From positions 1 to 44,429 of the forward strand of contig JAHIMW010000172.1 of NCBI GenBank assembly GCA_018896355.1: DNA of 44,429 bases, given 5' to 3'. The notes below the pieces were generated by a model, which was given only the letters and a program-made list of their open reading frames with translations, had not been told where the DNA came from and did not search any database. Shown here piece after piece: positions 830-44,429 of the stretch; positions within the stretch are counted from its first letter, which is position 1; the number at the start of each line of letters is the position of its first letter. The stretch is from Pseudomonadota bacterium. GTDB taxonomy: Bacteria > Desulfobacterota > Syntrophia > Syntrophales > UBA5619. The position numbers were made by a program, and so were the translations under genes.

Positions 830-2404
830 ATGAAGGTCAGCAGCGTCGATGAGATGCGGGCGATGGACCGCAGGGCCATCGAGGAGTTGGGGATCCCCGA
901 GGCGATCCTGATGGAGAACGCCGGAAGGGCGGCTTTCGAGATCCTCTCCCGGGAGTGGGGGGTCGCCGGCAGGCGGTATATCCTCTTCTGCGGGGCCGGA
1001 AACAACGGCGGCGACGGGCTGGTCGTGGCGCGACTTATCCTCGCGGGCGGCGGAACCCCCCGCGTCTTCCTCGTTGGAGACAGCTCGCAGTTCCGGGGAG
1101 CGGCAAAGACCAATTTTGCCATCCTTGAGAAGCTTCCTGTGGAGATGTCATCGGTTTCGGATGTTGAAGCCCTCCGGTCGGCGCTCCTCCATGCGGACGG
1201 GATCGTAGACGCCCTTTTCGGGACGGGCCTCGACCGCGACGTCGACGGCCTCTGCCGGGAGGTGATCGAATCGATCAATGCGGCCTGCCTGCCGGTTCTC
1301 AGCATGGACATCCCTTCCGGCGTCCATGGCGATACGGGAGAAATTCTCGGGGTGGCCGTCCGGGCGGACCATACCGTCGCCTTCGGCCTTCCCAAGATCG
1401 GAAATATGCTCTACCCCGGCTGCGGCCTCTGCGGCCGGCTCCATGTCTCGCACATCTCCTTCCCCCCCTCCCTATACGACGATGAAGCGATTCCGGTCGA
1501 GACGAACGGCTTCATCCCGTTGCCGTCCCGCGGACCCGAAGCCCACAAAGGATCCATGGGGGATGTTTTGTTCATCGCCGGCGCCGCCGGCTATTTCGGC
1601 GCCCCTTACTTTTCCGCGATGTCGTTGTTGAAGGCGGGCGGGGGGTATGCCCGGCTGGCCGCCCCCTGGTCGATGACCCCTTTCCTCGCCACGCGGGGGA
1701 GCGAGATCGTTTTTGTCCCCCAGGCGGAAACCACGGAGGGAAGCCTCTCGCTGAAGAACAGAGAAGCCCTTCTTGCGCTGGCCGAACGGGTGGACATGGT
1801 CGTCATCGGCCCGGGCCTCTCGCTTGCGGAGGAGACCCAGCAACTCGTCCGTGAACTGGCGGCCGGCATTGAGAAACCGCTTCTCGTCGACGGCGACGGG
1901 ATCACCGCGCTGGCAGGTCATCCGGAGATCATCCGGGGCCGCCGGGCGCCGACGATCCTGACCCCCCATCCGGGGGAGATGGCGCGACTCACCGGGAAGT
2001 CGGTTATGGAAATCGAAAAAAGTCGGATCCCGATCCTCCGGAAGGTCTGTGCGGATCTGAAGGGGTGGATCGTCCTCAAAGGCGCCCACTCGCTGATCGG
2101 GACGCCGGAGGGGCGGGTCTTCATCAACCTGAGCGGAAATCCGGGGATGGCGACGGCGGGGGCGGGGGATGTCCTCACCGGGACGATCGCCGCGATGTAC
2201 GGCCTCGGCCTCCCGCTTGAGGAGGCGGTGCGCAAAGGGGTGTTCCTCCACGGCCTTGCCGGGGACCTGGCTGCCGCGGACAAGGGGGAGGACGGGATCA
2301 CGGCCCAGGATATCCTCAACTACCTCCCCTACGCGCTGAAACAGGACCGGGAAGGCCTCGACGAGACGCTGGCGGAGCGCTACGAAGGGCCGGCGTTGGT
2401 ATAA
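830..2404 (+). CDS. nnr: Bifunctional NAD(P)H-hydrate repair enzyme (epimerase / ADP-dependent dehydratase)
   Basis: The N-terminal YjeF_N part reads MRAMDRRAIEELGIPEAILMENAG...GAGNNGGDG. The C-terminal carbohydrate-kinase-like part contains GSMGDVLFIAG...GPGL...TPHPGE...GAGDVLTG. I chose the ATG at 830 (SD GAGGTGG upstream) over the ORF-track start at 803 because family similarity begins at MKVSSVDEMRAMD. Confidence 0.9.
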   Translation: MKVSSVDEMRAMDRRAIEELGIPEAILMENAGRAAFEILSREWGVAGRRYILFCGAGNNGGDGLVVARLILAGGGTPRVFLVGDSSQFRGAAKTNFAILEKLPVEMSSVSDVEALRSALLHADGIVDALFGTGLDRDVDGLCREVIESINAACLPVLSMDIPSGVHGDTGEILGVAVRADHTVAFGLPKIGNMLYPGCGLCGRLHVSHISFPPSLYDDEAIPVETNGFIPLPSRGPEAHKGSMGDVLFIAGAAGYFGAPYFSAMSLLKAGGGYARLAAPWSMTPFLATRGSEIVFVPQAETTEGSLSLKNREALLALAERVDMVVIGPGLSLAEETQQLVRELAAGIEKPLLVDGDGITALAGHPEIIRGRRAPTILTPHPGEMARLTGKSVMEIEKSRIPILRKVCADLKGWIVLKGAHSLIGTPEGRVFINLSGNPGMATAGAGDVLTGTIAAMYGLGLPLEEAVRKGVFLHGLAGDLAAADKGEDGITAQDILNYLPYALKQDREGLDETLAERYEGPALV

Positions 2405-2412
2405 GCCCTATC

Positions 2413-3339
2413 CTATTTCCGGAGGCCGCGAAGCCCCTTCGGGATCTCGTCCTTTCCAGTCAGCGTCTGTTTCCCCTGCGGACCGAGGATGACGCAGTTG
2501 GGCGTCGACCGGATCCGATCCTCCTTCAGGTAGTTGCCGAAGATCTTGAAAACCGGCGCCGTGTCATACGGACGGAAGGTTATACCCTTTGTCTTCAGGA
2601 ATGTCTCTAGCGCCTCCTTCTCCATGATCTTCTTCCCCGCCGCTTCGAAGAGCGCCCCTCGGGCGGCGACCGCCTGCGAGAAATCGTTCTTTGCGTTCAG
2701 CGCCGCGAGGAAATAATTGGCGAAGAGAACCGTTCCCGGGTGGACCGGCGTGTCGATGAAGAGAACACGGATCAGGCTCTTCCCGACGAGTTCGCTGATG
2801 AGAGAGATCACCTCCGCCTCCTCGGCCGAGCAAGGCCCGCAGAAGTAGTCCGTATAGAGACGAACCTCAACCGGCCCTTTGCCGAAGGCAGGCAGGACGA
2901 GGTCGGCGGCATAGACGGGTGTTGTCGAGCCGGAGAAAAAAAGCCAGAAGAAGATGAGCCCGGCGGCGGCCGCCAGCGCGGTCAGCGCCTTCCGGTTTCG
3001 CTCGAAATTCACCGCGAAGGCCAGCAGGATCGTAGCCCCGAAAGCGAGGCAGTATGGGCAATAGACGCCGCTGTGCACCTGGTAGCCGATCAGGAAGATC
3101 TCCCCTCCCGCCCCGAAGGCGAGGAGCAGGAGGCAGAGAAAGGGTTTTCGGGACCACGCGAGGAGCAGAACAATGACCATGTAGAAGATCCCGAGGTATT
3201 TGAGGTCGATCCCCAGGATATCGCCTTTCAGATAACTGCACGCGCCCAGGCAGAAGGCGTAGGCAACGGTTATGGCGATACCGGTCAGCGCAAGCAGGAT
3301 AGTCAGGAAACGCCTCTTCCGGGATAGAAAATTCTTCAT
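2413..3339 (-). CDS. Membrane CxxC (VKOR/DsbB-like) domain fused to a DsbA/thioredoxin-like domain
   Basis: The N-terminal half has several predicted TM helices, with CLGAC and a membrane-embedded CPYC. The C-terminal half has a thioredoxin-type CGPC (RLYTDYFCGPCSAEE) and DsbA-like length. Confidence 0.6.
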   Translation of the reverse strand: MKNFLSRKRRFLTILLALTGIAITVAYAFCLGACSYLKGDILGIDLKYLGIFYMVIVLLLAWSRKPFLCLLLLAFGAGGEIFLIGYQVHSGVYCPYCLAFGATILLAFAVNFERNRKALTALAAAAGLIFFWLFFSGSTTPVYAADLVLPAFGKGPVEVRLYTDYFCGPCSAEEAEVISLISELVGKSLIRVLFIDTPVHPGTVLFANYFLAALNAKNDFSQAVAARGALFEAAGKKIMEKEALETFLKTKGITFRPYDTAPVFKIFGNYLKEDRIRSTPNCVILGPQGKQTLTGKDEIPKGLRGLRK

Positions 3340-3436
3340 GAAATTCAGGAACCCTCCTTCACCATTGAGAACGGCGGTTTCTTACCCTTTTCCGCCCGGC
3401 GGGGTCAAGGATTTTCGTGCCGATCTCTGACCGCTG

Positions 3437-4654
3437 TCAGCAACGGAAACACCCGTTCTCATAGATCACGACCCTCTTCCCCGTCGTGAGGTGCGCCGTG
3501 ACCGTTTTGGCCTCCGTGTTCACCAGGTCCCAGTGGAGGGCCGAGTCGTTGAAGCCCAACTTCCGCTTGAGCGTTCCGGTCATCGCGGCGGGATCGCCGG
3601 CGTAGGTGTCTGTGTAGGAGGCCCCGACAGCGATGTGGCAGTTTCCGTTCTCTCCGCCGAAGTTTTCGTCAAAGAGGGTGTCGGCCATGAACCGGTCGAT
3701 CCGCGAGAAGCGCCGGTCGGTCAGCGAAAACTCGCCGATCCGTTTCGCACCCCTGTCCATCGCAAGCTGACGGACGGTGAACGCCTCGCCGGTTTCGGCG
3801 TGGATCTCGACGGCGTTCCCCCGGTGAAAGGTCAGTTTCACCCCCTCGATATAGTTGCCGCTCCGGTAGGAGGGGAGGTTCGCGTAGTAGGTCCCCTCGG
3901 CGCCGCGCCAGTCCGGGGAGACGAAGAGTTCGAAACTGGGGATGTTGTGGCCGGAGACCCCTGCCCAGCGCCGCTGCTCCCCCGGCGTGATCCGGAGGTC
4001 GCAATGGGTGGATTCGATGTGGAAATAGGCCGCCTTCAGCCCTCCCAGCCACTTCTTGATAGCGGTCGCATCGCGTCTGATCTCCTCCCATTTGCCGACC
4101 GGATCTTTACGGTCCAGATAACAGGCCCGGATGATCTGTTTCGCGTAAGCCTCCGGTGTCGTCCGGGCCTGCTCCGCAAGCTCCGCCGTCGGGAGTGTGC
4201 AGATGGTCCAGCCATAAGCCCCCTCCTGCTCGCGCCGCTCGAGGATGTCGCGGAGCGGCTTGCGGGCGACCAAAACCTTGCCGATCCGGGTCGGGTCGAT
4301 CCCTTTAAGATGGGTCAGCAAATCGGGTGCATGGAGATAGATCCGTCCGTGGAGATTTCCGCAGAGTTCCTTCTCGCCCGGGGGCTGGAAAACGAGTTGG
4401 CGTCCGCCGGACTTTCCGAAGAAGGAACGTTCCATGCCGACGGTGAGACCCATCCGCTGAATGGGGTTCATCCCCGCTGCGAGGATCTTTCCGTAGAGGA
4501 TTTCCGCGAGCCGCAGCGCGGCACGATCATACTGGATCAGGATTACGTTTCCCTTCCGGAATCGCCCCCGCCGGGCCGTCTTGAGACCCCAGAGCAGCAC
4601 GTCGGCGTACCGCTCCAGGTATCGTTCATGCAACATATAGGCTGCCGTCGTCAT
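3437..4654 (-). CDS. Aminopeptidase, M29 (AmpS/PepS) family
   Basis: The 405 aa product matches the family in length and sequence pattern (YADVLLWGL...ILIQYD...GNLPSYRSGNYIEG...FDENFGGENGNCHIAVG). Its ATG overlaps the stop of the upstream DsbC-like gene (ATGA at 4651-4654). Confidence 0.75.
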   Translation of the reverse strand: MTTAAYMLHERYLERYADVLLWGLKTARRGRFRKGNVILIQYDRAALRLAEILYGKILAAGMNPIQRMGLTVGMERSFFGKSGGRQLVFQPPGEKELCGNLHGRIYLHAPDLLTHLKGIDPTRIGKVLVARKPLRDILERREQEGAYGWTICTLPTAELAEQARTTPEAYAKQIIRACYLDRKDPVGKWEEIRRDATAIKKWLGGLKAAYFHIESTHCDLRITPGEQRRWAGVSGHNIPSFELFVSPDWRGAEGTYYANLPSYRSGNYIEGVKLTFHRGNAVEIHAETGEAFTVRQLAMDRGAKRIGEFSLTDRRFSRIDRFMADTLFDENFGGENGNCHIAVGASYTDTYAGDPAAMTGTLKRKLGFNDSALHWDLVNTEAKTVTAHLTTGKRVVIYENGCFRC

Positions 4655-5358
4655 TTCTTGCTGCCCAGGATCCTTTCCATCCGCGGGATGTCCGCCCCAT
4701 AAACAACCTGTCCGTCGATCAGGAAGAGAGGCGTTCCCGTGACCCCGACGCTGTCGCCGATCTCCCGGTGGGTTTTCAGGAGATCCTCCACAGCGTCGCT
4801 CTTGCAGGGCGTGAATTTCATATCGTCCAATTTTCCGGCCATCGCTTCTTCATAAGCTTTGCCGCGGTCTTCGGCGCAGAAGATCTGACGGACCTTTGCC
4901 GGGGCGTTCGGGTGGATCGCCAACGGGAAGAAGAAGACATGCCGGGTCACATCGTTTCTCTCCGAGAGGAAGGCGGATGCCTTTCGGCAGTACGTGCAGT
5001 CCGGATCCGTGATCTCGATGACCTGATGGGGGCCGGCGCCGATCCGGAGGGCCTTCTCGAGTGGGACCCCTTTCAAGCCCCGTTCCATGATCTCCAGGAC
5101 GCGCTCTTCCGTCAGGTTCCTTCCCTCCCGCGTGATCATCGGTCCGTAGATGAGGTATTCGGGGCCCGGGGCGTAGTAGAGGACCCGCTTTCCGGAGACC
5201 ACCTCGTAGAGACCGTTTATGCCGGCGGGACGGATGCTGTCCGCACGGAGGTTGGGAAAACTCTTCCGGAGGGACTCTTCCGGTGTCGCCGCCCGGACGG
5301 GAGCGCTGACGACGATCAGCAGCACACAGAGGATGAAGGATTTTTTATAAATATTCAT
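4651..5358 (-). CDS. Periplasmic thiol:disulfide interchange protein, DsbC/DsbG-like
   Basis: It has a signal peptide (MNIYKKSFILCVLLIVVSAPVRA), an N-terminal dimerisation-like region, and a thioredoxin fold with CTYC (ITDPDCTYCRK) and a GTPLFLIDG motif. Confidence 0.7.
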   Translation of the reverse strand: MNIYKKSFILCVLLIVVSAPVRAATPEESLRKSFPNLRADSIRPAGINGLYEVVSGKRVLYYAPGPEYLIYGPMITREGRNLTEERVLEIMERGLKGVPLEKALRIGAGPHQVIEITDPDCTYCRKASAFLSERNDVTRHVFFFPLAIHPNAPAKVRQIFCAEDRGKAYEEAMAGKLDDMKFTPCKSDAVEDLLKTHREIGDSVGVTGTPLFLIDGQVVYGADIPRMERILGSKK

Positions 5359-5406
5359 GGTCTGTTTACCTCTTTCTCCAGTTATTCCGTTACAGACCCT
5401 AAGCGG

Positions 5407-6375
5407 TTACAGCCTTCTTGCAAGGATGTAGTCCGTGATGGTAAGCAGCGCGGTTTTGGCCTCCGAGTCGTCAAAGGGGGAGAGAAATCCCCGTGCCTCA
5501 TCAATGCAGTTTCTGGCCTTCCTCAGGGCATAGTGGATCCCGTCGTAACGATGCATCACGTCCATGATCCCGGCGGTCGCCTCCCCATCCTTTTTCTCGA
5601 TCCCCGTCCGGATGAAGGTCCTCTCTTCCGGTGTGCACTTCTTGATGGTCCGGATGAGCGGGAGCGTCAGCTTCCCCTCTCGGAGATCCTGACCGATCGC
5701 CTTGCCGAATTCTTCCTCCCTGGCGACGTAGTCGAGGGTGTCGTCCGTAATCTGGAAGGCGGTTCCGAGCCTCATGCCGAAGCGGGTCAGCGCCTCGATC
5801 TGCGCGTCCGTTGCATTTCCGAGGATGCCGCCGATGGCGCAGGCCGCGGAAATCAGGATCGCTGTCTTTTTCTCCACAATCAACAGGTATTCCTTTTCGG
5901 TGATGTTGACGTCGCCCGTCTTCATCAACTGAAAGACCTCACCCTCCGACATCGTGTTCGTCGTGGTGGAGATCAGCTTGAGGATGGCCATGCTTCCGTC
6001 GTCGATCATCAGCTTGAAGGATTTGGAGTAGAGGAAATCCCCGACGAGGACACTTGCGGCATTGCCCCAGACGCGGTTTGCGGAAACCTTCCCCCGCCTG
6101 GTCCCCGCATGGTCGACTACGTCGTCGTGGAACAGGGAGGCGGTATGGATGAACTCGATGACCGCCGACAGCGGATAACGGCGCTCCCCCCGGTAGCCGC
6201 AGAGTTCGGCGGTGGCCAGAAGCAGGAGCGGCCGGAAACGCTTGCCGCCGCTGCCGATCAGGTGGTGAATGATTTCCGGGATGAGCCGAACCTCCGAACG
6301 GAGGTATATCTCCATGTGGTCTTCGACCTTTTTCAGATCGTTCCCGAAGTAGTGAAACACCTCCTGTATCTGCAT
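5407..6375 (-). CDS. Long-chain polyprenyl diphosphate synthase (IspB-type; chain length not determinable)
   Basis: The 322 aa product has the first DDxxD motif in LFHDDVVDH...RRG and the second in FQITDDTLDY. Confidence 0.85.
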   Translation of the reverse strand: MQIQEVFHYFGNDLKKVEDHMEIYLRSEVRLIPEIIHHLIGSGGKRFRPLLLLATAELCGYRGERRYPLSAVIEFIHTASLFHDDVVDHAGTRRGKVSANRVWGNAASVLVGDFLYSKSFKLMIDDGSMAILKLISTTTNTMSEGEVFQLMKTGDVNITEKEYLLIVEKKTAILISAACAIGGILGNATDAQIEALTRFGMRLGTAFQITDDTLDYVAREEEFGKAIGQDLREGKLTLPLIRTIKKCTPEERTFIRTGIEKKDGEATAGIMDVMHRYDGIHYALRKARNCIDEARGFLSPFDDSEAKTALLTITDYILARRL

Positions 6376-34939: not shown

Positions 34940-37795
34940 TTAGACCTCTTTTTGTGAGGGCTCCGTCTTGACTATGTCGCCGCGTTCCCTAACCATCATG
35001 GTTCTCTTGTGCCGGATGTAGATCTTGACGAGTTCCATTGCGATCGCCGAGGCAAAGAAGAACGGCAGCATGAAAAACCAGTCATCCGGCGTCAGGGTGA
35101 CCGTGTAAAAGAAGGGTTGCAGGAACGGAACGTAAACGACGGTCAACACAAGGAGGAACGAAACGACCGTTGCGCCGACCATCCAGCGGCTTGAAAAAAC
35201 ACCGATCTTGAAAACGCTCAGGTACTCGGAGCGGGCGGTGAAGGCCCTCACGAGCTCCGATACGCTCAAAGTCACAAAGGCCATGGTTTGGGCGGCCTCG
35301 ATTTGACCGGGATAACGGCCCATCCCCAGATAGAACACAAGAAGGATGGCTATGGCGTCCACAACCGCTACCACGGATATACCGATCTTCATATCCGTAT
35401 TGACCAGCGGTTCCGCCGGCGGTCTGGGCGGTTGTCTCATGGTGTCGGGTTCGCCTTTTTCCATTCCGAGGGCCAGGGCAGGGGCGCCATCGGAAATGAG
35501 GTTCAACCACAACAGGTGAATGGGCCTGAGCGGAATGGGCAGCCCCATCAGCATGGCGCAAAAAACGATCAGGATTTCACCGACGTTGCAGGCCAGCAGA
35601 AAGTAAACGAACTTTCGGATGTTGGAGTAGATGATCCGGCCCTGCTCGACGGCGGAGACGATGCTTGCGAAGTTGTCGTCCGTCAGGACAATGTCCGCCG
35701 CCGCCTTGGAGACGTCCGTTCCGGTGATGCCCATGGCGATGCCGATGTTCGCCCGTTTAAGAGCCGGCGCGTCGTTCACGCCGTCGCCGGTCATCGCCAC
35801 GATGTGGCCGCGCGCCTTGAGGGCGTCGACGATCCTTGTCTTGTGCGCCGGGGAGACACGACAGCAGACATCCAGTCTGTCCGCCTCGGCGGTTAGTCGC
35901 TCGTCGTTTATCTGGTCGAGTTCGGTTCCGGTCAGGACCAGACCGCCTGGCGTCCGCAGACCGATCTCCCGCGCCACGGCTTCGGCCGTCTCCCGGTAGT
36001 CGCCGGTCACCATGATGGTCTTCAAACCGGCCCCTCGCGCCACCCTCATTGCTGCAATCACCTCGGGCCGCGGCGGATCGATCATGCCGAGCAGGCCGAT
36101 GAACGTAAGATCCTTTTCAACCTGATCCGGGTCGGCGTTTTCGGGAACGGCATCCAGGGGGCGGTACGCCACGGCAAGCACCCGGAGGGCGTTGCCGGCC
36201 ATTTCTCGGTTCCGTTCGAGAATCTCCTGCCGCTTCTCTTCCGTCAGCGAAACGGCTTGCCCGTCTTGAAGAACCCGGCTGCAGAGATCCAGAACGAAGT
36301 CCGGCGCCCCCTTGACGAAGGCAACTACGGGCGGATAAGAGAATCCCGCCGGTGTACCCGTCCGGGCGACGGTTGGGTCATACCGGTGGATCGTGGTCAT
36401 CCGTTTCCTGTCCGAGTCAAAGGGGATCTCCGCCACCCTCGGCAGAACCTTTGCGATATCCGCGCGTCGAACGCCTGCCTTTGCCGCGGCTACAACCAGG
36501 GCGCCTTCCGTTGGATCGCCGGTGATTCTCCATGAGGTCTCTTTTCCCCCTTCCACGAGATCGGCGTCATTACACAGCAGGCCGCCCCGGAGGAGCGCGG
36601 CGACATCGGCATCCCCCTGGGGGTCGAAACCCTGTCCGTCCCGCGTGAACAGTCCGGTCGGGGCATACTCCTTCCCCGTCACTTGGAATCCCCTTCCGCC
36701 GGTCCAGCCCTGCAGGACGGTCATCTGGTTCTGTGTCAGGGTTCCCGTTTTGTCGGTGCAGATCACTGTGGTGCTACCGAGCGTCTCAACGGCAGCTAAC
36801 TTGCGGATCAGCGCGTGGCGCTTGATCATCTGCTGCATCCCGATGGCGAGACAGATGGTCACGATCGCAGGCAGTCCCTCCGGGACGGCGGCGATGGCGA
36901 GACTGATGGCGATCATGAACAAACCGATGATGACCTTCTGCTCGGCTAAAAGGTAGTGGATGAAACCGTCCTGAAAGGCAGTCGTGAGATTCGTATCTCT
37001 AATAAGGCCGTAGATGAAGACGAATCCGCAGATGGCAAGGCATGCGGTCCCGAGCACCTTCCCCAGGTGGGCCAATTTCTGCTGGAGGGGAGTATCCTCT
37101 TCCACGTAAGACTGGATCATCTCGGCAATGAGGCCGATCTGCGTCTCCATTCCCGTTCCCGTCACGACCCCCCTGCCGCGCCCGTAGGTGATCAGGGTGC
37201 TCATGAAGACGGTATTCTTCCGGTCTCCCAGGGGGACCTCCTTGTCCAACACGACCTTTGCGCTCTTCTCGACCGGCAGCGACTCCCCCGTCAGAGAGGC
37301 TTCTTCAACCTTGAGATTGATGCTCTCCACGAGGCGCATGTCGGCGGGGACGTAATTGCCGGCTTCCAAAAGGACGATATCACCGACCACCAGCTTCCGG
37401 CCGGGAATCGATGTCTGACGCCCGTCACGGACGACTTGGGCGTGAGGGGCGGCCATCTTCTTGAGGCCCGCGATCGCCTGTTCGGCCTTCGATTCCTGAA
37501 TCACCCCCAAGACGGCATTGAGAACGATGATGACCGTGATGGCGATTGCGTCGATGTATTCGCCGAGAAGAACCGTCACGACCGCTGCGACGATCAGGAT
37601 GATTACGAGGAAGTTGTTGAATTGGTCCAGGAGCAGCGCGAAAAATCCGGGCCGCGGTCGCTCCCTGAGCTCGTTGGGTCCGTACTTCCGGAGGCGAACC
37701 CGCGCCTCGACCTCACTCAGTCCCATGGCGAGGTCCGTATGAAGCCCGCGGACCACCTCATCAATCGACTTTTCGTGGCTTCCCGTTTCCATCAT
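34940..37795 (-). CDS. Cation-transporting P-type ATPase, P2 (Ca2+-ATPase-like)
   Basis: The 951 aa product has TGES, CTDKTGTLTQNQM (phosphorylation site), MVTGD, TGDGVNDAPALK and ~10 TM segments. Confidence 0.9.
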   Translation of the reverse strand: MMETGSHEKSIDEVVRGLHTDLAMGLSEVEARVRLRKYGPNELRERPRPGFFALLLDQFNNFLVIILIVAAVVTVLLGEYIDAIAITVIIVLNAVLGVIQESKAEQAIAGLKKMAAPHAQVVRDGRQTSIPGRKLVVGDIVLLEAGNYVPADMRLVESINLKVEEASLTGESLPVEKSAKVVLDKEVPLGDRKNTVFMSTLITYGRGRGVVTGTGMETQIGLIAEMIQSYVEEDTPLQQKLAHLGKVLGTACLAICGFVFIYGLIRDTNLTTAFQDGFIHYLLAEQKVIIGLFMIAISLAIAAVPEGLPAIVTICLAIGMQQMIKRHALIRKLAAVETLGSTTVICTDKTGTLTQNQMTVLQGWTGGRGFQVTGKEYAPTGLFTRDGQGFDPQGDADVAALLRGGLLCNDADLVEGGKETSWRITGDPTEGALVVAAAKAGVRRADIAKVLPRVAEIPFDSDRKRMTTIHRYDPTVARTGTPAGFSYPPVVAFVKGAPDFVLDLCSRVLQDGQAVSLTEEKRQEILERNREMAGNALRVLAVAYRPLDAVPENADPDQVEKDLTFIGLLGMIDPPRPEVIAAMRVARGAGLKTIMVTGDYRETAEAVAREIGLRTPGGLVLTGTELDQINDERLTAEADRLDVCCRVSPAHKTRIVDALKARGHIVAMTGDGVNDAPALKRANIGIAMGITGTDVSKAAADIVLTDDNFASIVSAVEQGRIIYSNIRKFVYFLLACNVGEILIVFCAMLMGLPIPLRPIHLLWLNLISDGAPALALGMEKGEPDTMRQPPRPPAEPLVNTDMKIGISVVAVVDAIAILLVFYLGMGRYPGQIEAAQTMAFVTLSVSELVRAFTARSEYLSVFKIGVFSSRWMVGATVVSFLLVLTVVYVPFLQPFFYTVTLTPDDWFFMLPFFFASAIAMELVKIYIRHKRTMMVRERGDIVKTEPSQKEV

Positions 37796-38008
37796 TCCAG
37801 GTCTCCAGGTTATTCGTCAGCTGTTTTTCATCGATCCAATAGATGAAGCCAATCCCTTCTCCTTCAATCCGATGAGGGTCTTGCGGCCGGCATGACGAAA
37901 TATTGGAACAAGCCGGCGGACCAGCGGATGGTCATGGCCGAATGCAAACGGAATATACCATCCGTTGTGGAGAATGACAATTCATGATCAGTCCACAAAA
38001 AGGGTTTT

Positions 38009-38956
38009 TCAGATGAAGGAGGCGACCACCTTACTGATGAAAAAAGCATAGAAGATCAGAAACAGCATTCCCTCCGAAGAAGAGATCTTTTTGTCTTGAG
38101 TCAGGAGGTAGAACAGGACGGAGGCGACGACGAACACCGGTAAGGAAAAGCCGATCAGGTATTCGGGAACCTGAATAGTGCCGAATCCCGACACGGCTCC
38201 GGGAATCACCAGTGCGTTGAAGACGCAGGAACCCAGAATGTTGCCGACGGCGATCGCCGGTTTCCTCTGCCGGATGGCCGTGACGCTGACCGCCAGTTCC
38301 GGAAGGGTCGTTCCCAGCGATAAAACCGTCAGCGAGATGAGTGAAGGGGGAACCACAAGATGCTGCGCAATCGCTATAATGCTATCAACTGTATGGTCGG
38401 CCCCGATATAAATGCCGACGCCGGACGCCAGCAGGATCAGCAGCGCTTTGAACGGGAAAGAAGTTTTGATCGGCGAGTTCGTCCCATTCGTTTCAACGAG
38501 GGGTTGTTGGCCGCTCCTGAGCAGGAAGTGGCTGTAGATGGCATAGGTCGCAAGCAGGAAGAGGCCCTCGGAAAACGCAATTTCACCATCCATCATGATC
38601 AGGCCGAGCAAAAGTGACGATCCGATCAGAAAATTGAGGTCTACCATGATGTAACCGCCACCCATCTCGATACCCTTCCGGGACAGCACGGCGATCAGGC
38701 CAAGAATCAGAAAGATGTTGGAGATGTTGGCACCCAGCACATTTCCCGAGACGATCTCCGAGTTTCCGGCAAGGCCCGCCAGAACGCCCGCCACCAGTTC
38801 GGGCAGCGAGGTGCCGATGCCCACGATGAACACTCCGATCACAAAGGACGACATGCCGAAATAAAGGCCCAGCCTTTCAGCTGCCTTCGTCAAGAATCGT
38901 GCGGAGACAAGCAGAACCACTAAGCTGATGATGAAAATCAAGGAGGAAACGAGCAT
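38009..38956 (-). CDS. Ca2+/Na+ antiporter (CaCA / YrbG family)
   Basis: There are two alpha-repeat motifs, GTSLPELVAGV and GTTLPELAVSV. The 315 aa product is polytopic. Confidence 0.85.
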   Translation of the reverse strand: MLVSSLIFIISLVVLLVSARFLTKAAERLGLYFGMSSFVIGVFIVGIGTSLPELVAGVLAGLAGNSEIVSGNVLGANISNIFLILGLIAVLSRKGIEMGGGYIMVDLNFLIGSSLLLGLIMMDGEIAFSEGLFLLATYAIYSHFLLRSGQQPLVETNGTNSPIKTSFPFKALLILLASGVGIYIGADHTVDSIIAIAQHLVVPPSLISLTVLSLGTTLPELAVSVTAIRQRKPAIAVGNILGSCVFNALVIPGAVSGFGTIQVPEYLIGFSLPVFVVASVLFYLLTQDKKISSSEGMLFLIFYAFFISKVVASFI

Positions 38957-40452
38957 GGCGCCCCAAAAAAATTTCCGAATGCTGTCATGGCGCGCGAAGC
39001 CATCTATTGGATGAGGTCGGATAGAAATACGGCGCGTGCATGTTTAGGACAACGCCTCCCACTGTTTCCGCCGTTTCCAGCTTCGCGGCGAAAAAGATAC
39101 TATACCATGCATCTCTTTCCCGCAAGCCCCCTCTCATCCAGCCGTCAACATCCGCATCTTACATATCACAATGATGGAAGAACAGAGCTTTATTGATTAT
39201 CGATTGAAGTCCAGTAATTTGATCAAGGTTGGCTATTTATTGACTTCAGGAAGCTATACGTAACATAATCTGAATTTCTTACTGATGTTGGTATGTTACA
39301 CTGTGTTTACAATAGCCATAAATTCCTGTATCCGTCAAGTTGTTTTTAGATAGCACCTTTGCCATTGCAAATAAAAAATCCTTGGTTCCAGTTATAGGGA
39401 AATAGACACAATATATTGTGCGCCGTGCAAAGGCGCTGTTTTCCAGCGGGTGCGAAACCCGCCCGGCAACTTTCGCTCCGGCCGGTAGCAACCAGAGCAG
39501 ACGTGGAGGTAACGAAGCGGCTGAAGCCTTTGGTGTAGAGGGTTCTGTAAGGGACTTGGCGAGCATGCAGGCCGTAATGTGAGTGAACGCTGAGCAGGCC
39601 CCGAAAATGTTAATGCGGAAGCCGACCCGGCGATATTACGGGGAAGGCTGTCATTTGTTGGTGAAGCGAGCGAAAAGCGCAACCAACAGTTCCGCCGGGG
39701 TATTGGCGACGGCATGCATGAAAGAGGAAAGCAGACGCAACACGGGAAGCCCCATCACGAGGCCGAGCGTGAGACCAACCGGACGCCCGTGAGGGACAGG
39801 CCAGGCGTGATGGGGTGGCGGAGAGGCCCGTAGTGTGCGCTGGGCAGCGCACTGATCAGGAGGGTTAAAGTCCCTCTGGCACCCGGATGAGGGGTGCTAT
39901 ATCCAAAGGCGGGGGTAACGCCTCGCTGGCCGGGGATTGCGAATAAGGAGAACCCTAAACGGGCACAAGGCCGGAAACGGAGGAGACAGCCAAGGGGATT
40001 CCTAAGTTTGCATTCTGTCGCAAGACAACCGGAGGACAGGGTGTCCACCGTGAGGTGGAATCTGAAGGGTTTGAGGAGAAATACCGGGCCGTAATCGACG
40101 GGGGCCACCCCGAGGATGAACCGGTCGGCCAAAGGTGGGGCAAGGTCGAGCCTGCACTATGGAGGCGAAGGCGTTCTCATCCACCCACCGTACCAAGGTG
40201 TTTGCGGGCGGCACGGTATGGAAGATCAGTGCGTGACCCCAGGAGAACTCACATGGTTTCCGGGTGGCACTGGGATAAGGGACCCTATAAGCGAGAGCGA
40301 AGTGGGAAACGATGCCATGTGAGTGGTCGGACAACCGAATAGTACCTGAAGCACGGTGAAAGCCGTGTGACCGAGGAATCGGCAGACGAGTGAACTGGGG
40401 AAGGCGGTTGACAAGGGTGGTTGGTGCGAAACGAAAAGCGAGATAAGTAAGG

Positions 40453-41769
40453 ATGATGACGAGGATAAGTTCCGTCAGTGAAAAACCCATAAGTGATCAT
40501 TCGAGGAGACTCGCGGACTGGATCAACCCGACCGGTGGAAGGAAGGTCCACTCATTAGTGGACAAGGTTTACAAGATGAAGAACTTGGAGTTGGCTTGGC
40601 AGAAGGTACGTCAGAACCGAGGAGTTGGGGGAATAGATGGTCAGAGCATTGAGGAGTTTGAGGGGAATCTTGTTGAGAACCTCGAACGACTCCATAATGA
40701 GCTCAAGGCTGACACATATCACCCGCAGCCAGTTCGGCAGAAGATGATTCCGAAGCCTGGGCAGCCGGGGAAGTTACGTCCTCTGGGGATACCCACGGTG
40801 TATGGACGGGTATGCCAGCAGGCGTTACTAAACCGGTTGGAGCCGATCTTCGATCCGGTATTCGATGAAGCCAACTTCGGGTATCGGAAGGGGAGATCAA
40901 CGAAGGATGCGATGCGTAAAATCTGGAAGGAGGTGCAAGAGGGTCGTGAATGGATTTTGGACGCTGATCTAAAAGATTTTTTCGGGTCAGTGGATCATGA
41001 AAAACTCATGACTCTGGTGAACCAGTGTGTATCAGACGGGCGAGTGCTCAGGCTTATAAAGAGCATACTCAAGGCTGGATGTTATGCAGAGGGGAAAACG
41101 CTTCCAACAGAGCAGGGGACACCGCAGGGTGGAGTAATATCACCTCTGCTGAGCAATATTCTTTTAACTCCATTTGACTGTGAGATGAGGAAGAAGGGAT
41201 ACAGATTGACAAGATATGCTGATGATTGGTTGGTGACCTGCAAGAGCCGGTCGGAGGCAATATCAGCCTTAGCCACGGCGAGACGGATACTGGAGAAACT
41301 TGGAGTTACCCTTCATACCGAGAAGACGCGCATCGTACATGTGCGCCAGGGGTTTGAATTTCTCGGTTACAAGATCAAGCGAGGGAGCCAGAAACTTAGA
41401 TTGGCACCCGAAAAGATTCGTAGCGGAGTGGTGCAGGGTGATCTGTATGTTTATCCTCGCAATAAATCAATCAGGCACTTCACAGAGCAGATACGAAAGC
41501 GAACGCGGCGTAAGGCCCCGGTAGGGACAAAGGAACTGATTGAGGATATCAATCCAGTCATACGCGGATGGGGGAATTATTACTGTAAGGCCCATGTCCG
41601 CAAGCTCTTCAACCGTTTGGACGGATGGATTGTACGGCGGATATGGTCGCACAGACGTAAACGCTGGCGAAATACAGGATGGAAGGAACTTCCTGAAACA
41701 ATCCTATATGGAGAAATGGGTCTTGTGAATCTTATATCACTGGTACCGTCTATAACACCTGCCAGATAG
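40453..41769 (+). CDS. Group II intron reverse transcriptase/maturase (no endonuclease domain evident)
   Basis: RT blocks are present (GVGGIDG, LRPLGIPTVYGRVCQQA, FGYRKGRS, DADLKDFFGSVDH, GTPQGGVISPLLSN, YADDWLV), along with a maturase X-like segment (INPVIRGWGNYY). Confidence 0.9.
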   Translation: MMTRISSVSEKPISDHSRRLADWINPTGGRKVHSLVDKVYKMKNLELAWQKVRQNRGVGGIDGQSIEEFEGNLVENLERLHNELKADTYHPQPVRQKMIPKPGQPGKLRPLGIPTVYGRVCQQALLNRLEPIFDPVFDEANFGYRKGRSTKDAMRKIWKEVQEGREWILDADLKDFFGSVDHEKLMTLVNQCVSDGRVLRLIKSILKAGCYAEGKTLPTEQGTPQGGVISPLLSNILLTPFDCEMRKKGYRLTRYADDWLVTCKSRSEAISALATARRILEKLGVTLHTEKTRIVHVRQGFEFLGYKIKRGSQKLRLAPEKIRSGVVQGDLYVYPRNKSIRHFTEQIRKRTRRKAPVGTKELIEDINPVIRGWGNYYCKAHVRKLFNRLDGWIVRRIWSHRRKRWRNTGWKELPETILYGEMGLVNLISLVPSITPAR

Positions 41770-41782
41770 GCAGCCTTTGTGA

Positions 41783-41815
41783 AAGCGGAGTGCGGGAAAA
41801 CCGCACGCTCCGTTT
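41783..41815 (+). ncRNA. Group II intron domain V (inner intron)
   Basis: In AAGCGGAGUGCGG-GAAAA-CCGCA(CG)CUCCGUUU, the AGC triad is at 41784-86. The 2-nt bulge on the 3' strand and the ~14 bp helix are canonical. Confidence 0.75.
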
Positions 41816-41880
41816 GAGCGGCGGACGGAGGCTAGCCCCTCGGGGCGCCTCCTCCGACCCGACACCGTTGAATTCGGGTA

Positions 41881-43272
41881 ATGCCGAAGGAGGGAAGGGG
41901 CCTTGGTTCAAGACCAACGCAACAAGTGGGAAAGGACAGGAGATTGGGAAACCTGAAAACTCCGGAAAGTGTTCAGAAACTGCGGACGGCGTTACATGCC
42001 AAAGCGAAGGAAGAACCCGATTTTCGCTTTTACCTCCTATACGACAAGGTATATCGACGGGACGTACTCGAATACGCCTATCGAAGCTGCAAAGCCAACA
42101 AGGGAGCAGCCGGGGTAGATGGAGTGTGTTTTGAAGACATCGAATCGTATGGAGAAGAACGTTGGATCGGGGAACTGGCGGAACGGCTGAAGAAGAAAGA
42201 CTACCGACCGGAAGCGGTCAAGCGGGTCTGGATACCAAAGCCGAACGGCAAACTGCGCCCCTTGGGAATACCGACGATCACCGATCGTGTCGTGCAAACG
42301 GCCCTCTTGATCGTGCTGGAACCCATTTTTGAAGCCGACCTGCAACCGGAGCAATATGCTTATCGGCCAGATCGGGGAGCGCAGGACGCGGTAAAAGCGG
42401 TCCATCGTTTACTCACCACCGGACACCAGCACATTATTGATGCGGACCTGTCAGGTTATTTCGACAGCATCCCGCACGCCGAATTGATGAAGAGCGTCGC
42501 CCGTCGGATCGTTGATCGGCACGTTCTGCACCTCATCAAGCAATGGCTGGAAATGCCGGTCGAAGAAGACGATGGACACGGCCACCGGAAGCGGACAACC
42601 GTCAACCGGGATACCGGACGCGGAACGCCCCAAGGCGCGCCTATCTCACCGCTGCTGTCGAATCTGTACATGCGGCGGTTCATACTGGGATGGAAGCTAC
42701 TGGGGCATGAGCGTCGCTGGTCGGCGCAAATCGTCAATTACGCGGACGATTTTGTCATCTGCTGCAAAGGCCTAGCCGACAAGGCAATTGAAGCAATGCG
42801 GCGCATGATGGAGCGGCTAAAGCTGACGATTAACGACGACAAGACAAACTTGTGTCGGATACCGCAAGAGCGGTTTGATTTCTTGGGTTACACCTTCGGA
42901 CGATGCTACAGCAAAGAGACCGGACGCGTCTATATCGGCACCCGGCCATCTATGAAGAGCATCAAGCGGATGGTGGACAGCATTCCCGAGGAAACAAACC
43001 AGTGCCGAACCATAGTGGAGGCCGAAGCTGTCGTGGGTAGGCTAAACCGGAAACTGACCGGCTGGGCGAATTACTTTTGCCTGGGGCCAGTCAGTCCGGC
43101 GTATCGGGCCATCAACACCCACGTTACGCAACGGCTCCGTCGGTGGTTGTGTAAGAAGCATAAAGTTCGTGGCAAGGGATGGTCACGCTATCCCGATCAG
43201 TACCTGCATGAGCAATTGGGGCTGATTTACTTGCCGAAGAGGACGCGCAACCTTCCGTGGGCAAAAGCATGA
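41881..43272 (+). CDS. Group II intron reverse transcriptase/maturase (second, distinct lineage)
   Basis: RT blocks are present (GAAGVDG, LRPLGIPTITDRVVQTA, YAYRPDRGA, DADLSGYFDSIPH, GTPQGAPISPLLSN, YADDFVI), with an X domain (LTGWANYF). An in-frame TGA at 41869-71 stops the ORF extending across the inner-intron junction. Confidence 0.9.
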   Translation: MPKEGRGLGSRPTQQVGKDRRLGNLKTPESVQKLRTALHAKAKEEPDFRFYLLYDKVYRRDVLEYAYRSCKANKGAAGVDGVCFEDIESYGEERWIGELAERLKKKDYRPEAVKRVWIPKPNGKLRPLGIPTITDRVVQTALLIVLEPIFEADLQPEQYAYRPDRGAQDAVKAVHRLLTTGHQHIIDADLSGYFDSIPHAELMKSVARRIVDRHVLHLIKQWLEMPVEEDDGHGHRKRTTVNRDTGRGTPQGAPISPLLSNLYMRRFILGWKLLGHERRWSAQIVNYADDFVICCKGLADKAIEAMRRMMERLKLTINDDKTNLCRIPQERFDFLGYTFGRCYSKETGRVYIGTRPSMKSIKRMVDSIPEETNQCRTIVEAEAVVGRLNRKLTGWANYFCLGPVSPAYRAINTHVTQRLRRWLCKKHKVRGKGWSRYPDQYLHEQLGLIYLPKRTRNLPWAKA

Positions 43273-43284
43273 AGTCTTGTCCGA

Positions 43285-43317
43285 GAGCCGGATGCGGGAA
43301 ATCCGCCTGTCCGGTTC
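43285..43317 (+). ncRNA. Group II intron domain V (outer intron)
   Basis: In GAGCCGGAUGCGG-GAAAU-CCGC(CU)GUCCGGUUC, the AGC triad is at 43286-88 and the 2-nt bulge is at 43307-08. Confidence 0.85.
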
Positions 43318-43870
43318 GATGAGCGGGATGTGGAAACGGAGCATGGTTGGGATACTGAGGCACCGGCAACTGAAAGGGCCGGAAACAGATAGGCCCTACC
43401 TAACCCACCGCGCCACATCTCGACTCTACAATATTATTATTATCATTAGTTGCAAAGGCTCCGGAGCAATGTAATCCGACAAACAGACAAACGCCGTTTT
43501 CATCTCCTCGGCCAACCCAAAGGGCGCGTGTTCATCAAAAAACAACTGTTCATATTGTTAACACATCATGCAACCTTAATTACCTGATTTTTATAGATTT
43601 AAATGAATACTATACATTCCCGAGGAGGAAGTGTAAATATATATAACACTTCTTGCACGGCAGTCCGTTTGCCGGGAAACCTCCATAATCTTTCACTTGC
43701 ATGTAAACGACTACTTATATTGAATATATTTCAGTACGGTTGAAAATGATCCCAACTTCTCTGCTTTGGCATGGTTATTGGAGTTATAAAAAGCAAAGAG
43801 TGATGCCGAAAGTGGCGGGGGTTGGTTTGGTAGTGTTGATGGGAATTTCGATTCAGAGAGAGAGGAGGAA

Positions 43871-44080
43871 ATGGTTATGTTACTCACACTTTTAATTGTT
43901 GTCATTATGTTAGGGCTGGTGATGCCGCTGTTTTGGATTGTCGGAACGATTGGATCCATCACCTATGTTGGCCTAAACGGAATGGGTGTAGCCTTCAAAG
44001 AGCGAACCGTTGCCCTGAATCCCCATCTGGGCTTCACCATGGCCGATGGTGGTGAACCTGTGGATGAAGAGAAAAAATAG
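43871..44080 (+). CDS. Small hypothetical membrane protein
   Basis: The 69 aa product has an N-terminal hydrophobic stretch consistent with two TM helices (LLTLLIVVIMLGLVMPLFWIVGTIGSITYVGL) and an acidic tail. GAGGAGG lies upstream, and either ATG (43871 or 43877) could be the start. Confidence 0.4.
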   Translation: MVMLLTLLIVVIMLGLVMPLFWIVGTIGSITYVGLNGMGVAFKERTVALNPHLGFTMADGGEPVDEEKK

Positions 44081-44180
44081 TCAGCAGCGGTTAAGTAGGT
44101 CAGCATGACCGAAACGTTGCAGGGATCCCCAGAGCGGATTACATTGAAACGGATCAATCAATAAGAAGGAGGCAATAGAA

Positions 44181-44429
44181 ATGGAAGGCTTCATCTATTC
44201 AGATATCTTTGCGACAAAGGGGGTTGAATATCTGCTGGTCATCAGCGTTCTGCTGCTCTTCATTCCCTTCTGGAGGATGGTGAGCAGGCCTGCAAAGGCA
44301 ATTTATCAGGCAACCGAAAGCATTATTCCGGCGATCAGTGAATGGTTTCATCTTCCGGAGGCAAAACTGTATTACCATCAGGGACATAGTTGGGCCATGC
44401 CGGAGAGCGGCAATGTGGTCAAGGTGGGA
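44181..44429 (+). CDS. Glycine-cleavage-H-like (lipoyl/biotinyl-type) protein with N-terminal TM anchor, 3'-partial
   Basis: A strong SD (AAGGAGG) lies 7 nt upstream of the ATG. The translation is MEGFIYSDIFATKGVEYLLVISVLLLFIPFW...LYYHQGHSWAMPESGNVVKVG. The last part resembles the GcvH N-terminal consensus (Y..EH.W......V.VG). The frame runs off the window end. Confidence 0.5.
   Translation, partial: MEGFIYSDIFATKGVEYLLVISVLLLFIPFWRMVSRPAKAIYQATESIIPAISEWFHLPEAKLYYHQGHSWAMPESGNVVKVG

Follow-up and report, generated by a model that had tools for sequence, protein, structure and literature searches.

A bacterial twintron confirmed by sequence comparison: one mobile group II intron set precisely within another in intergenic DNA

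The window (the whole stretch of DNA analysed, 44,429 nucleotides) contains a GC-rich element at 39418-43429 on the plus strand, embedded in an AT-rich intergenic stretch of about 0.9 kb. The flanks of this intergenic region are a Na/Ca-exchanger gene on the minus strand and, on the plus strand, a small ORF and a GcvH-like gene. GC content is about 0.35-0.42 upstream, switches to about 0.6 at 39418 and drops again past 43429. Within the element lie two different reverse transcriptase (RT)/maturase ORFs, each followed by a domain V and a domain VI, and the motif GTGCG occurs at both 39418 and 39835. The first-pass annotation had read these features as two nested group II introns, and its account of the ORFs, the 5′ ends, domains V and VI, the composition switch and the intergenic setting holds up throughout. 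A promoter and terminator scan of the upstream DNA yielded consensus-level matches only, none exceeding those in shuffled sequences. The source is a metagenome-assembled contig. Of 8,977 positions compared with the public record, 22 differ in the window; no differences fall in the inner intron and 12 fall in the outer ORF.

The outer intron is present as two pieces. Its 5′ piece (39418-39834) begins with GUGCG and aligns over positions 1-417 to uninterrupted introns at more than 40 loci. The domain I region at 39444-39582 matches the Rfam family group-II-D1D4-4 with 99.8 bits, and a consensus fold of the 5′ region, computed with RNAalifold from 18 homologues, contains 68 pairs with compensatory changes and places a domain III-like helix set at 39746-39819. 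Immediately downstream lies the 5′ strand of a split stem (39820-39829), whose partner is found at 41898-41909, beyond the inner intron; the paired alignment columns are 445-454 with 496-507, and compensatory changes occur at columns 449/501 and 453/497. This consensus fold, which covers the 5′ region by itself, would assign the split stem-loop to the 5′ part of domain IV. The 417-nt piece, initially taken as domains I-III, is more precisely modelled as domains I-III together with the 15 nt that open the following stem-loop.

The outer intron also displays the recognition elements of a mobile intron. A hairpin at 39626-39642 exposes the loop GAUAU (39632-39636), the outer EBS1, which pairs with the IBS1 sequence AUAUU formed by the last 5 nt of the 5′ exon (39413-39417). 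Of 18 family members, at least 12 have an equivalent loop that fits the 5′ exon of the same copy, and the sequences differ among copies. This fit to the local exon and the covariation in other copies mark the outer intron as a bona fide insertion in its own right.

The 3′ piece of the outer intron (41864-43429) comprises the rest of the split stem-loop, the IEP2 ORF and domains V and VI. It aligns over positions 1-1566 to uninterrupted homologues, beginning one base past the end of the 5′ piece. A hairpin at 41873-41888 (columns 470-474 with 482-486, again with compensatory changes) has the loop GUAAUG, which contains the first in-frame AUG of IEP2 at 41881; in some family members the loop reads GUAACG or GUAAUU, so it is not invariably a start codon. 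From this AUG, IEP2 is an RT/maturase of 463 aa (41881-43272), encoded by an intact ORF, with Pfam RVT_1 and GIIM domains and a score of 357 bits against TIGR04416 (group_II_RT_mat; cut-off 300); for IEP2 and for the inner protein IEP1 alike, the Pfam matches too exceed their curated cut-offs. GenBank instead starts the protein at a TTG at 41944, giving 442 aa. IEP2 is 93% identical to the protein of L001, a related copy of the outer intron that lacks the insert.

Domain V of the outer intron (43285-43317; RF00029, 39.8 bits) folds with a 2-nt bulge, and domain VI (43321-43426) has a bulged A at 43423, 7 nt before the 3′ end at 43429, with a fold z score of -4.4 relative to shuffles. Domain VI is unusually long, with about 75 nt inserted within the hairpin. 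The Rfam match to both domains (43283-43404, 39.8 bits) is marginally under the 40-bit gathering score. Its 3′ end at 43404, considered as the end of the intron, was rejected: it has a low posterior probability, the copies are homologous to 43429, and domain VI folds better there. Homology with independent copies extends to 43429 and the flanks diverge beyond it, in agreement with the 3′ end proposed earlier; the ends GUGCG (39418) and ...CUCUAC (43429) are thus the limits of homology among these copies.

The inner intron (39835-41863) is complete, with boundaries taken from flank contiguity in empty homologues, and its relatives align to it end-to-end over positions 1-2029 at many loci. It begins with GUGCG at 39835 and finishes with ...CCCGAC at 41863. 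A domain I segment carrying the EBS1 hairpin (40044-40232) gives a weak match to Rfam D1D4-3 (29.3 bits, short of the 32-bit gathering score; E = 0.0036), and an equivalent segment is kept in relatives. The intact ORF at 40453-41769 encodes IEP1, an RT/maturase of 438 aa (RVT_1, E = 1e-43; GIIM, E = 7e-20) that scores 391 bits against TIGR04416 (cut-off 300). Domain V (41783-41815) is supported by an RF00029 match of 38.3 bits and by its predicted fold, and domain VI (41819-41861; fold z = -4.0 versus shuffles) has a bulged A at 41857, 7 nt before the 3′ end. As for the outer intron, the Rfam match to the two domains (41781-41863, 38.3 bits) lies marginally below the 40-bit gathering score. 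A hit to the TPP riboswitch model that straddles the intron junction (41831-41912) scored 21.9 bits, where 54.3 is the gathering score, and was treated as chance.

Several comparisons bear on the relationship of the two introns. IEP1 and IEP2 are 32% identical. By Rfam 5′-domain family, the outer intron is assigned to D1D4-4 and the inner, weakly, to D1D4-3. The nearest inner relative resides in an unrelated host intron, in agreement with the earlier suggestion that the insert is of a different lineage. The best PDB match of both proteins is the GsI-IIC RT, a match that does not discriminate between intron classes, and plasmid matches to the proteins are annotated merely as ltrA, with no class claimed. 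An endonuclease domain was not detected in IEP1 or IEP2 among the Pfam and TIGR profile matches.

Evidence for nesting comes from removing the inner intron in silico. Joining 39834 to 41864 leaves a sequence of 1,983 nt that aligns as a single block to uninterrupted introns from dozens of genomes; the inner intron measures 2,029 nt, and both lengths agree with the first estimates of about 1.98 kb and 2.03 kb. The best uninterrupted match, L001, shares 94.5% identity across 1,983 nt; dozens of further genomes align at 70-85% identity. In L001 the outer 5′ piece aligns to 3311-3728 and the 3′ piece from 3729, such that the L001 junction 3728/3729 corresponds to 39834/41864 in the window. Removal of the inner intron therefore restores a continuous outer intron, and its joined length is typical of the family (1,981-1,993 nt). 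The junction is unambiguous, as the bases at the four boundaries permit no sliding; the insertion is exact, with 0 bases gained and 0 lost. The empty target, GGGGTGGCGGAGAGGCCCGTAGT directly followed across the junction by ACCGNTGAAG, is kept in 52 distinct copies. The first-pass annotation had proposed that 39418-39834 belongs to an outer intron resuming at 41864, a reading at risk if homologues of the second intron carried a different 5′ region elsewhere. The two pieces are contiguous in uninterrupted homologues, and therefore the second intron's homologues carry exactly this 5′ region, the equivalent of 39418-39834. Taken together, these alignments confirm the prediction of a bacterial twintron at 39418-43429, a complete mobile group II intron set precisely within another and interrupting it exactly. 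The two adjacent maturase genes of the public record accordingly belong to a single composite mobile element of 4 kb whose ends are defined, and gene or RNA predictions within 39418-43429 are to be read as parts of it.

The insertion site is a conserved stem-loop immediately 3′ of domain III and upstream of the host maturase ORF, 17 nt upstream of the first AUG of IEP2 and 80 nt upstream of the GenBank start. The inner EBS1, the hairpin-loop sequence ACUAUG (40156-40161), pairs with the IBS1 CGUAGU (39829-39834), which is outer-intron sequence. This pairing holds in 54 of 58 relatives and is accompanied by covariation: 29 distinct IBS1/EBS1 combinations were found among 62 loci, and a C in EBS1 is always accompanied by G at exon position -5 (6/6; Fisher p = 0.006 for the pattern of C:G versus U:A/G). 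The retargeted relatives L130 and L100 also retain pairing. For EBS2/IBS2, a pairing to be expected in introns of IIA/IIB type, two covariation scans across relatives found no consistently complementary segment, only EBS1. A perfect 8-bp match between GCCACCCC (40104-40111) and GGGGUGGC (39812-39819) was considered as EBS2/IBS2 and rejected, as it is lost in relatives.

Nearly all relatives of the inner intron share the flanks ...GTCRGA-N6-7-CRTAGT on the 5′ side and A(C/G)YG... on the 3′ side, and the A at 41864 corresponds to the A found in nearly all of these 3′ flanks. The short conserved target may point to recognition of structure rather than of a long sequence. The conserved upstream motif may be recognized by protein, by DNA structure or not at all; its conservation may simply reflect a need of the host intron.

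A survey of metagenomic relatives indicates that this insertion site is habitual. Host-intron evidence came from an Rfam 5′ domain just upstream and from a second domain V or RT ORF downstream (Rfam, tblastn). By this independent evidence, about 50 of 80 relatives lie at the equivalent spot in a host intron, a tally compiled by hand from several tool outputs that includes about 20 loci too short to judge; only 3 of the 80 have adequate flanks yet no host-intron evidence. The hosts belong to four Rfam 5′-domain families (D1D4-2, -3, -4 and -6). On plasmids of isolates with finished genomes, all three relatives examined are nested (Paraburkholderia hospita, Cupriavidus necator N-1 and Bradyrhizobium barranii). 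Verrucomicrobium sp. 3C also displays the nest, and an empty copy, L045, is 98.8% identical. An upstream homology gap at L037 was considered as a missing host 5′ piece; the cause proved to be an N gap in the scaffold where the inner intron begins.

These counts at one spot, in hosts from four families, make the inner lineage appear to home into introns, and it seems specialized for one conserved spot in other group II introns. Judged from the loci surveyed, the nest is the usual habitat of this lineage and no oddity of the present locus. The two introns also have histories of their own. Nearest to the inner intron is L079, with 96.8% identity; its host is an unrelated intron that encodes a maturase 39% identical to IEP2, and L123 (87%) is likewise within an unrelated host intron. 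The nearest outer relatives, L001 (94.5%) and L002-L005 (about 84%), are empty. This comparison clearly indicates that inner and outer elements move separately over short evolutionary times.

The locus is thus very probably the product of two mobile elements: an outer intron in intergenic DNA and an unrelated autonomous inner intron, of a lineage that targets other introns, that retrohomed into the outer intron's DNA copy. In this scheme the outer intron would have inserted into intergenic DNA at a site fitting its own EBS1, and the inner intron would then have entered the outer intron's DNA copy by retrohoming, with either order of insertion allowed at this locus. The inner EBS1 ACUAUG would have located its target by pairing with CGUAGU in the outer stem-loop. 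The usual target of this widespread lineage would be a conserved element of other group II introns from at least four ribozyme families, and those introns would therefore serve as both its homing sites and its vehicles. Splicing, splicing order and present-day mobility are matters that we infer from sequence. The whole 4 kb would be transcribed from upstream, the inner intron would be spliced out with the help of IEP1, rejoining the split stem, and the outer intron would be spliced next, with IEP2. Because IEP1 and IEP2 have no endonuclease domain, cDNA priming would rely on replication forks, an established route for introns of this kind (reviewed in PMC4424553).

A second possibility is that the twintron arrived already nested, the outer intron and the unspliced inner intron moving into the intergenic site as one 4-kb composite, in which case the inner intron would never have inserted at this locus. 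For the Thermosynechococcus twintrons, composite mobility figures among the two routes that have been discussed, and the fit of the outer EBS1 to the local exon, which indicates that the outer intron inserted by its own rules, is silent on prior occupancy by the inner intron. Nor is the order of events settled by the differences from the public contig, absent from the inner intron and numbering 12 in the outer ORF. Pre-nested arrival is nevertheless unlikely, given that the closest outer relatives are empty and the closest inner relatives live in unrelated hosts, although the last step at this locus could still have been composite.

Misassembly is far less probable. Reads of separate intron copies might have been mis-joined, since the contig comes from a metagenome-assembled genome and introns are repeats that assemble badly; in one related scaffold the inner 5′ end coincides exactly with an N gap, and the differences from the public record are concentrated in the outer ORF. 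However, the identical architecture and exact junction recur in dozens of independent assemblies and in closed plasmids of cultured strains, and in a chimera the junction would not conform to EBS1/IBS1 pairing, nor would a conserved stem reappear upon removal of the insert. Three neighboring pieces without nesting (a decayed 5′ fragment, an intact intron and a 5′-truncated third intron) would recall the truncations and rearrangements at some related loci, such as L119, L122 and L159, but this hardly credible reading is refuted by uninterrupted homologues in many genomes, full-length at 1,981-1,993 nt, in which the outer pieces abut to the base, and by a junction bearing an IBS1 that fits the inner EBS1.

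The proposed retrohoming of the inner intron into the outer intron's DNA copy would be a further case of a known phenomenon, as intron-into-intron homing has already been described in Thermosynechococcus and Methanosarcina. Bacterial twintrons have been described as rare (PMC4649490), and in one curated test set twintrons and other multi-intron candidates together account for 21 of 513 sequences (4%). The initial remark that few lineages are known to carry nested introns was overstated, given that several bacterial twintrons are known and that many more are present in the data analysed here.

One close parallel is Thermosynechococcus elongatus, where TeI3 lies in TeI4 at a conserved domain IV site near the maturase start and where inner and outer introns can move separately, as here (PMC2882425). 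Mohr, Ghanem and Lambowitz (2010) view these introns as having adapted to exploit a second mobile intron as their homing site (PMC2882425). Those inner introns are ORF-less, belong to the same family as the outer intron, are mobilized by the outer protein and are confined to one genome (PMC2882425). In contrast, the present inner intron has its own intact 438-aa maturase, 32% identical to the outer one, and its lineage extends across phyla in hosts of four ribozyme families. The Thermosynechococcus site falls between the first two ATGs (PMC2882425), whereas the site here is upstream of the ORF.

The nested introns of Methanosarcina acetivorans (Dai and Zimmerly 2003, as described in the review PMC4424553) likewise reflect repeated site-specific homing of introns into introns, and the review notes that this supplies a perpetual homing site amid non-coding sequence. 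These introns are archaeal and, according to the same review, nested up to five levels deep, and by the paper's title and the review's account homing is into related intron ORFs, whereas the target here is a stem-loop upstream of the ORF.

Two other systems can be compared. The Trichodesmium erythraeum twintron (Pfreundt and Hess 2015, PMC4649490) totals about 5.4 kb compared with 4.0 kb here, its inner intron lies in domain I of a host intron that interrupts a protein-coding gene rather than after domain III of an intergenic one, and its sequential splicing was shown in vivo, whereas the present case is known from DNA alone. The plastid twintrons of Euglena (Copertino and Hallick; PMC4424553) are also introns within introns, and removal of the inner one is often required before the outer can fold. 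They are, however, group II/III introns of organelles, mostly degenerate and ORF-less, that reside in essential genes, and not autonomous retroelements (PMC4424553).

The survey thus reveals one intron lineage with dozens of nests at a single conserved site, in four host ribozyme families and with closed genomes included. It is conceivable, at somewhat less than even confidence, that this lineage is cosmopolitan and autonomous and lives almost only within group II introns, as a retroelement hyperparasite that rides on its hosts through many phyla and habitats and recognizes a conserved stem-loop, between domain III and the maturase ORF, common to at least four ribozyme families. No description of such a lineage-wide habit was found in the literature searched, the incomplete coverage of which makes this weak evidence of absence; if the habit is undescribed, the single-genome Thermosynechococcus and Methanosarcina cases would be generalized to a distinct lifestyle. 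Such elements would be missed systematically wherever a pipeline discards loci that have two maturases (PMC4028801, PMC8919778). The lineage opens tractable questions: how a target is recognized with little beyond a 6-bp pairing, whether host maturase expression is under the control of the inner intron, and how non-coding DNA grows through nested retroelements. Relatives of the inner intron are carried by the culturable strains Cupriavidus necator N-1 and Paraburkholderia hospita.

The outer group II intron (39418-43429, encoding the maturase IEP2) contains a second, complete group II intron (39835-41863, encoding IEP1), as evidenced by comparison with uninterrupted homologues. A scan of one genome per species for IEP2 relatives gave 77 loci. 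When the outer pieces are joined in silico (39418-39834 plus 41864 onward), they align to these loci as a single unbroken block, which rules out a decayed fragment lying beside intact elements. The best match, in a Smithellaceae MAG (L001), is 94.5% over 1,983 nt; matches to Accumulibacter, Syntrophales, Methylobacter and many others are 70-85%. Homology ends at 39418 and 43429, beyond which flanks vary between copies, and the two pieces abut in L001 (5' piece to 3728, 3' piece from 3729). This sets the outer intron at 39418-43429 and the insert at exactly 39835-41863, with boundary bases that leave the junction only one possible position. The nest had been proposed from sequence alone in the first-pass annotation and is borne out by the contiguity of the joined pieces in these homologues. 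The two GTGCG 5' ends (39418, outer; 39835, inner), two RT/maturase ORFs and two domain V/VI sets that it described are present at the coordinates claimed. It had also named the 5' region of the second intron for comparison, and homologues have the outer 5' piece joined directly to the 3' piece. The nest is exact, with complete parts for both introns.

The GC-rich block 39418-43429 has a GC content of 0.53-0.61, and its AT-rich flanks have 0.42 and 0.39. IEP1 (40453-41769, forward strand, 438 aa) and IEP2 (41881-43272, forward strand, 463 aa) each contain Pfam RVT_1 and GIIM domains and exceed the cut-off of the NCBIfam equivalog for group II intron RT/maturase, and they are 32% identical. A domain search of both proteins found no endonuclease domain. 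Rfam detects a strong 5' domain of family group-II-D1D4-4 in the outer intron (39444-39582, 99.8 bits) and a weak D1D4-3 match in the inner intron (40044-40232). The domain V/VI matches score 38.3 bits (inner, 41781-41863) and 39.8 bits (outer, 43283-43404) against a gathering score of 40. In both 3' segments the predicted fold has a domain V hairpin and, 3' of it, a domain VI in which one A is bulged (A41857 in the inner and A43423 in the outer intron), each 7 nt from the intron end; z-scores of these folds are about -4 versus shuffles. Domain VI of the outer family (43321-43426 in the window) measures ~105 nt, including a structured insert of ~75 nt in its hairpin, and because of this insert Rfam wrongly puts the outer 3' end at 43404. 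A sigma-70-like promoter match (TTGACT, 18-nt spacer, CATAAT; 10/12 positions) lies at 39240-39269 on the forward strand, ~150 nt upstream of the outer intron. It is a consensus match only, and the number of promoter-like matches is not above that in shuffles.

Folding 18 diverse 5' regions of the outer family to a consensus yields 133 pairs, of which 68 show compensatory changes. In window coordinates, a domain III-like helix set (39746-39819) is followed 3' by a stem (39820-39829/41898-41909) that encloses both the insertion point and a small hairpin (41873-41877/41884-41888); the inner intron therefore splits a stem-loop. The insertion point is 17 nt upstream of the first in-frame AUG of IEP2, which lies in the hairpin loop GUAAUG, and 80 nt upstream of the TTG start in the public gene call. 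Since the equivalent loop is GUAACG or GUAAUU in some family members, this AUG is not a conserved start. On the modeled fold, the split stem-loop is more aptly viewed as a conserved structural RNA element, probably at the 5' boundary of domain IV.

Recurrent use of this site is seen among relatives of the inner intron. A metagenome scan with IEP1 recovered 80 loci (68-97% protein identity), and nearly all share with the window the flanks ...GTCRGA-N6-7-CRTAGT before and A(C/G)YG...GGAG.GAAGG after the intron. At eight loci (L093, L098, L117, L126, L132, L141, L148 and L157), outer-like DNA adjoins the inner intron at the identical point. An occupied copy in Verrucomicrobium sp. 3C (L037) has this arrangement too, and that genome additionally carries the empty copy (L045), 98.8% identical. 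Where blastn detects no outer-like DNA, Rfam places a host-intron 5' domain of one of four families directly upstream, with examples for each: D1D4-6 (L127, L110 and L152), D1D4-4 (L099, L140), D1D4-3 (L105, L109, L133) or D1D4-2 (L115, L142). Many IEP1 loci have a second domain V downstream, and in 32 of 62 downstream flanks tblastn finds a plus-strand RT ORF (26-65% identical to IEP2) that starts 18-270 nt past the 3' end of the inner intron; most misses were short flanks. By a hand tally, an enclosing intron is independently supported at about 50 of the 80 loci; three with adequate flanks lack such support (L100, L130, L145), six are ambiguous and the others are too short for a call. On closed plasmids of the cultured strains Paraburkholderia hospita, Cupriavidus necator N-1 and Bradyrhizobium barranii, more distant relatives (62-66% protein identity) are nested likewise, which argues against an assembly artifact. 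Among the 77 loci recovered with IEP2 (55-93% protein identity), the inner lineage occupies only one, and the empty target is highly conserved. Taken together, these loci indicate that the inner intron is a member of a lineage that targets other introns.

Several loci have more elaborate arrangements. L160, on C. necator N-1 plasmid pBB2, is a three-level nest (938-5760) in which an IS110-family transposase gene (2105-3241, reverse strand) lies inside an inner-lineage intron (1299-4898), the host of which is a D1D4-6-type intron whose maturase is degraded. Extra group II 5'-domain matches soon after the inner 3' end in L091 (2422-2590 and 3258-3386), L092 (2416-2536) and L141 (4132-4273) suggest arrays of more than two introns, as in Methanosarcina. 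The host domain V lies only 125-315 nt past the inner intron in L094 (2467-2542), L115 (2716-2791) and L086 (2056-2151), a spacing that points to host introns that lack an ORF or whose maturase has been lost. A 5S rRNA match in L086 (2122-2238; 42.3 bits against a gathering score of 38) overlaps the host domain V/VI match.

Intron-in-intron nesting as such is already known. Euglena plastids provide familiar examples of twintrons, several others are known from bacteria and archaea, and Methanosarcina introns have homed repeatedly into other introns (PMC4424553). In Thermosynechococcus elongatus, the closest parallel, ORF-less introns have inserted into domain IV of related introns, where they separate the first and second ATG of the maturase ORF (PMC2882425). 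A Trichodesmium twintron combines two unrelated ORF-bearing introns, with insertion in domain I and proven sequential splicing (PMC4649490). The observation and interpretation of the nest are confirmed, and its added value is the evidence placing the inner intron in an intron-targeting lineage. Three features set the present nest apart: the inner intron is autonomous and not related to the intron that hosts it, its insertion point is upstream of the ORF, and its lineage spans phyla and host ribozyme families. No description of such lineage-wide breadth of targeting was found in the literature searched, whose coverage was incomplete; the breadth is possibly new rather than new, and the chance that the lineage-wide habit has not been described before is put at slightly below even.

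Both introns carry an EBS1, the loop that pairs with IBS1 in the 5' exon, that matches its target. The inner EBS1 is a hairpin loop, ACUAUG (40156-40161), complementary to CGUAGU (39829-39834), and the pairing is kept in 54 of 58 relatives. EBS1 has C at its fifth position only where the exon has G at -5 (6/6; Fisher p = 0.006; 62 loci). Two copies at unusual sites have both sides altered with pairing kept, L100 and L130, the latter with ACUAUC facing GAUAGU. The 3' flank starts with A in nearly all inner-lineage copies, and two scans for a consistently complementary segment across relatives found no inner EBS2. In the outer intron, EBS1 is the loop GAUAU (39632-39636), whose pairing partner is AUAUU (39413-39417); among other outer-family copies, the loop at this position changes in step with the 5' exon.

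Other copies vary in target or loop. In L119 (1788-3813) the EBS1 loop is changed to CGUAUG, pairing at 6/7 positions with a 5' flank that ends in CAUCCG and is not intron-like; the 3' flank is still host-intron-like, and either retargeting or rearrangement could account for this locus. In some empty outer-family targets (L006, L007, L016, L017, L030, L031, L042, L044, L055, L067, L071), GTATG, GTACG or GTATT replaces GTAGT as the last bases before the insertion point, which would weaken pairing with the inner-lineage EBS1; these could be resistant alleles. The outer family itself has a loose 5'-exon motif, approximately TAGCCCNNATTTNNN, just before the intron in many independent copies, and several MAGs (Spirochaetia, Paracoccaceae) hold 5-8 copies at different sites, which suggests relaxed target choice.

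From what is established for group II introns (PMC4424553, PMC2882425), insertion may have proceeded by reverse splicing into DNA and then reverse transcription, likely primed at replication forks because neither IEP has an endonuclease domain. The twintron would be transcribed from upstream, and removal of the inner intron would restore the split stem, allowing the outer intron to splice. Splicing of the outer intron might also take place with the insert present, because domain IV tolerates large inserts. IEP2 might be translated from unspliced RNA, since its start is downstream of the insert.

The nearest inner relative (L079) matches at 96.8% over 2,029 nt and has a host maturase 39% identical to IEP2; the second nearest (L123, 87%) has a host of the D1D4-3 type. 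The closest outer relatives are empty. Because nearest relatives are unmatched in host and occupancy, the two introns move separately. The outer intron may, with lower probability, already have carried the insert when it last moved into its intergenic site. Compared with L078 (GenBank JAKLQI010000116.1), which has the same IEP1, window positions 35453-44429 have 22 differences in 8,977 bases: none in the inner intron and 12 in the outer maturase ORF, 7 of those within 43209-43237. A strain variant could account for these differences, as could exchange or mis-assembly between copies of the outer intron.
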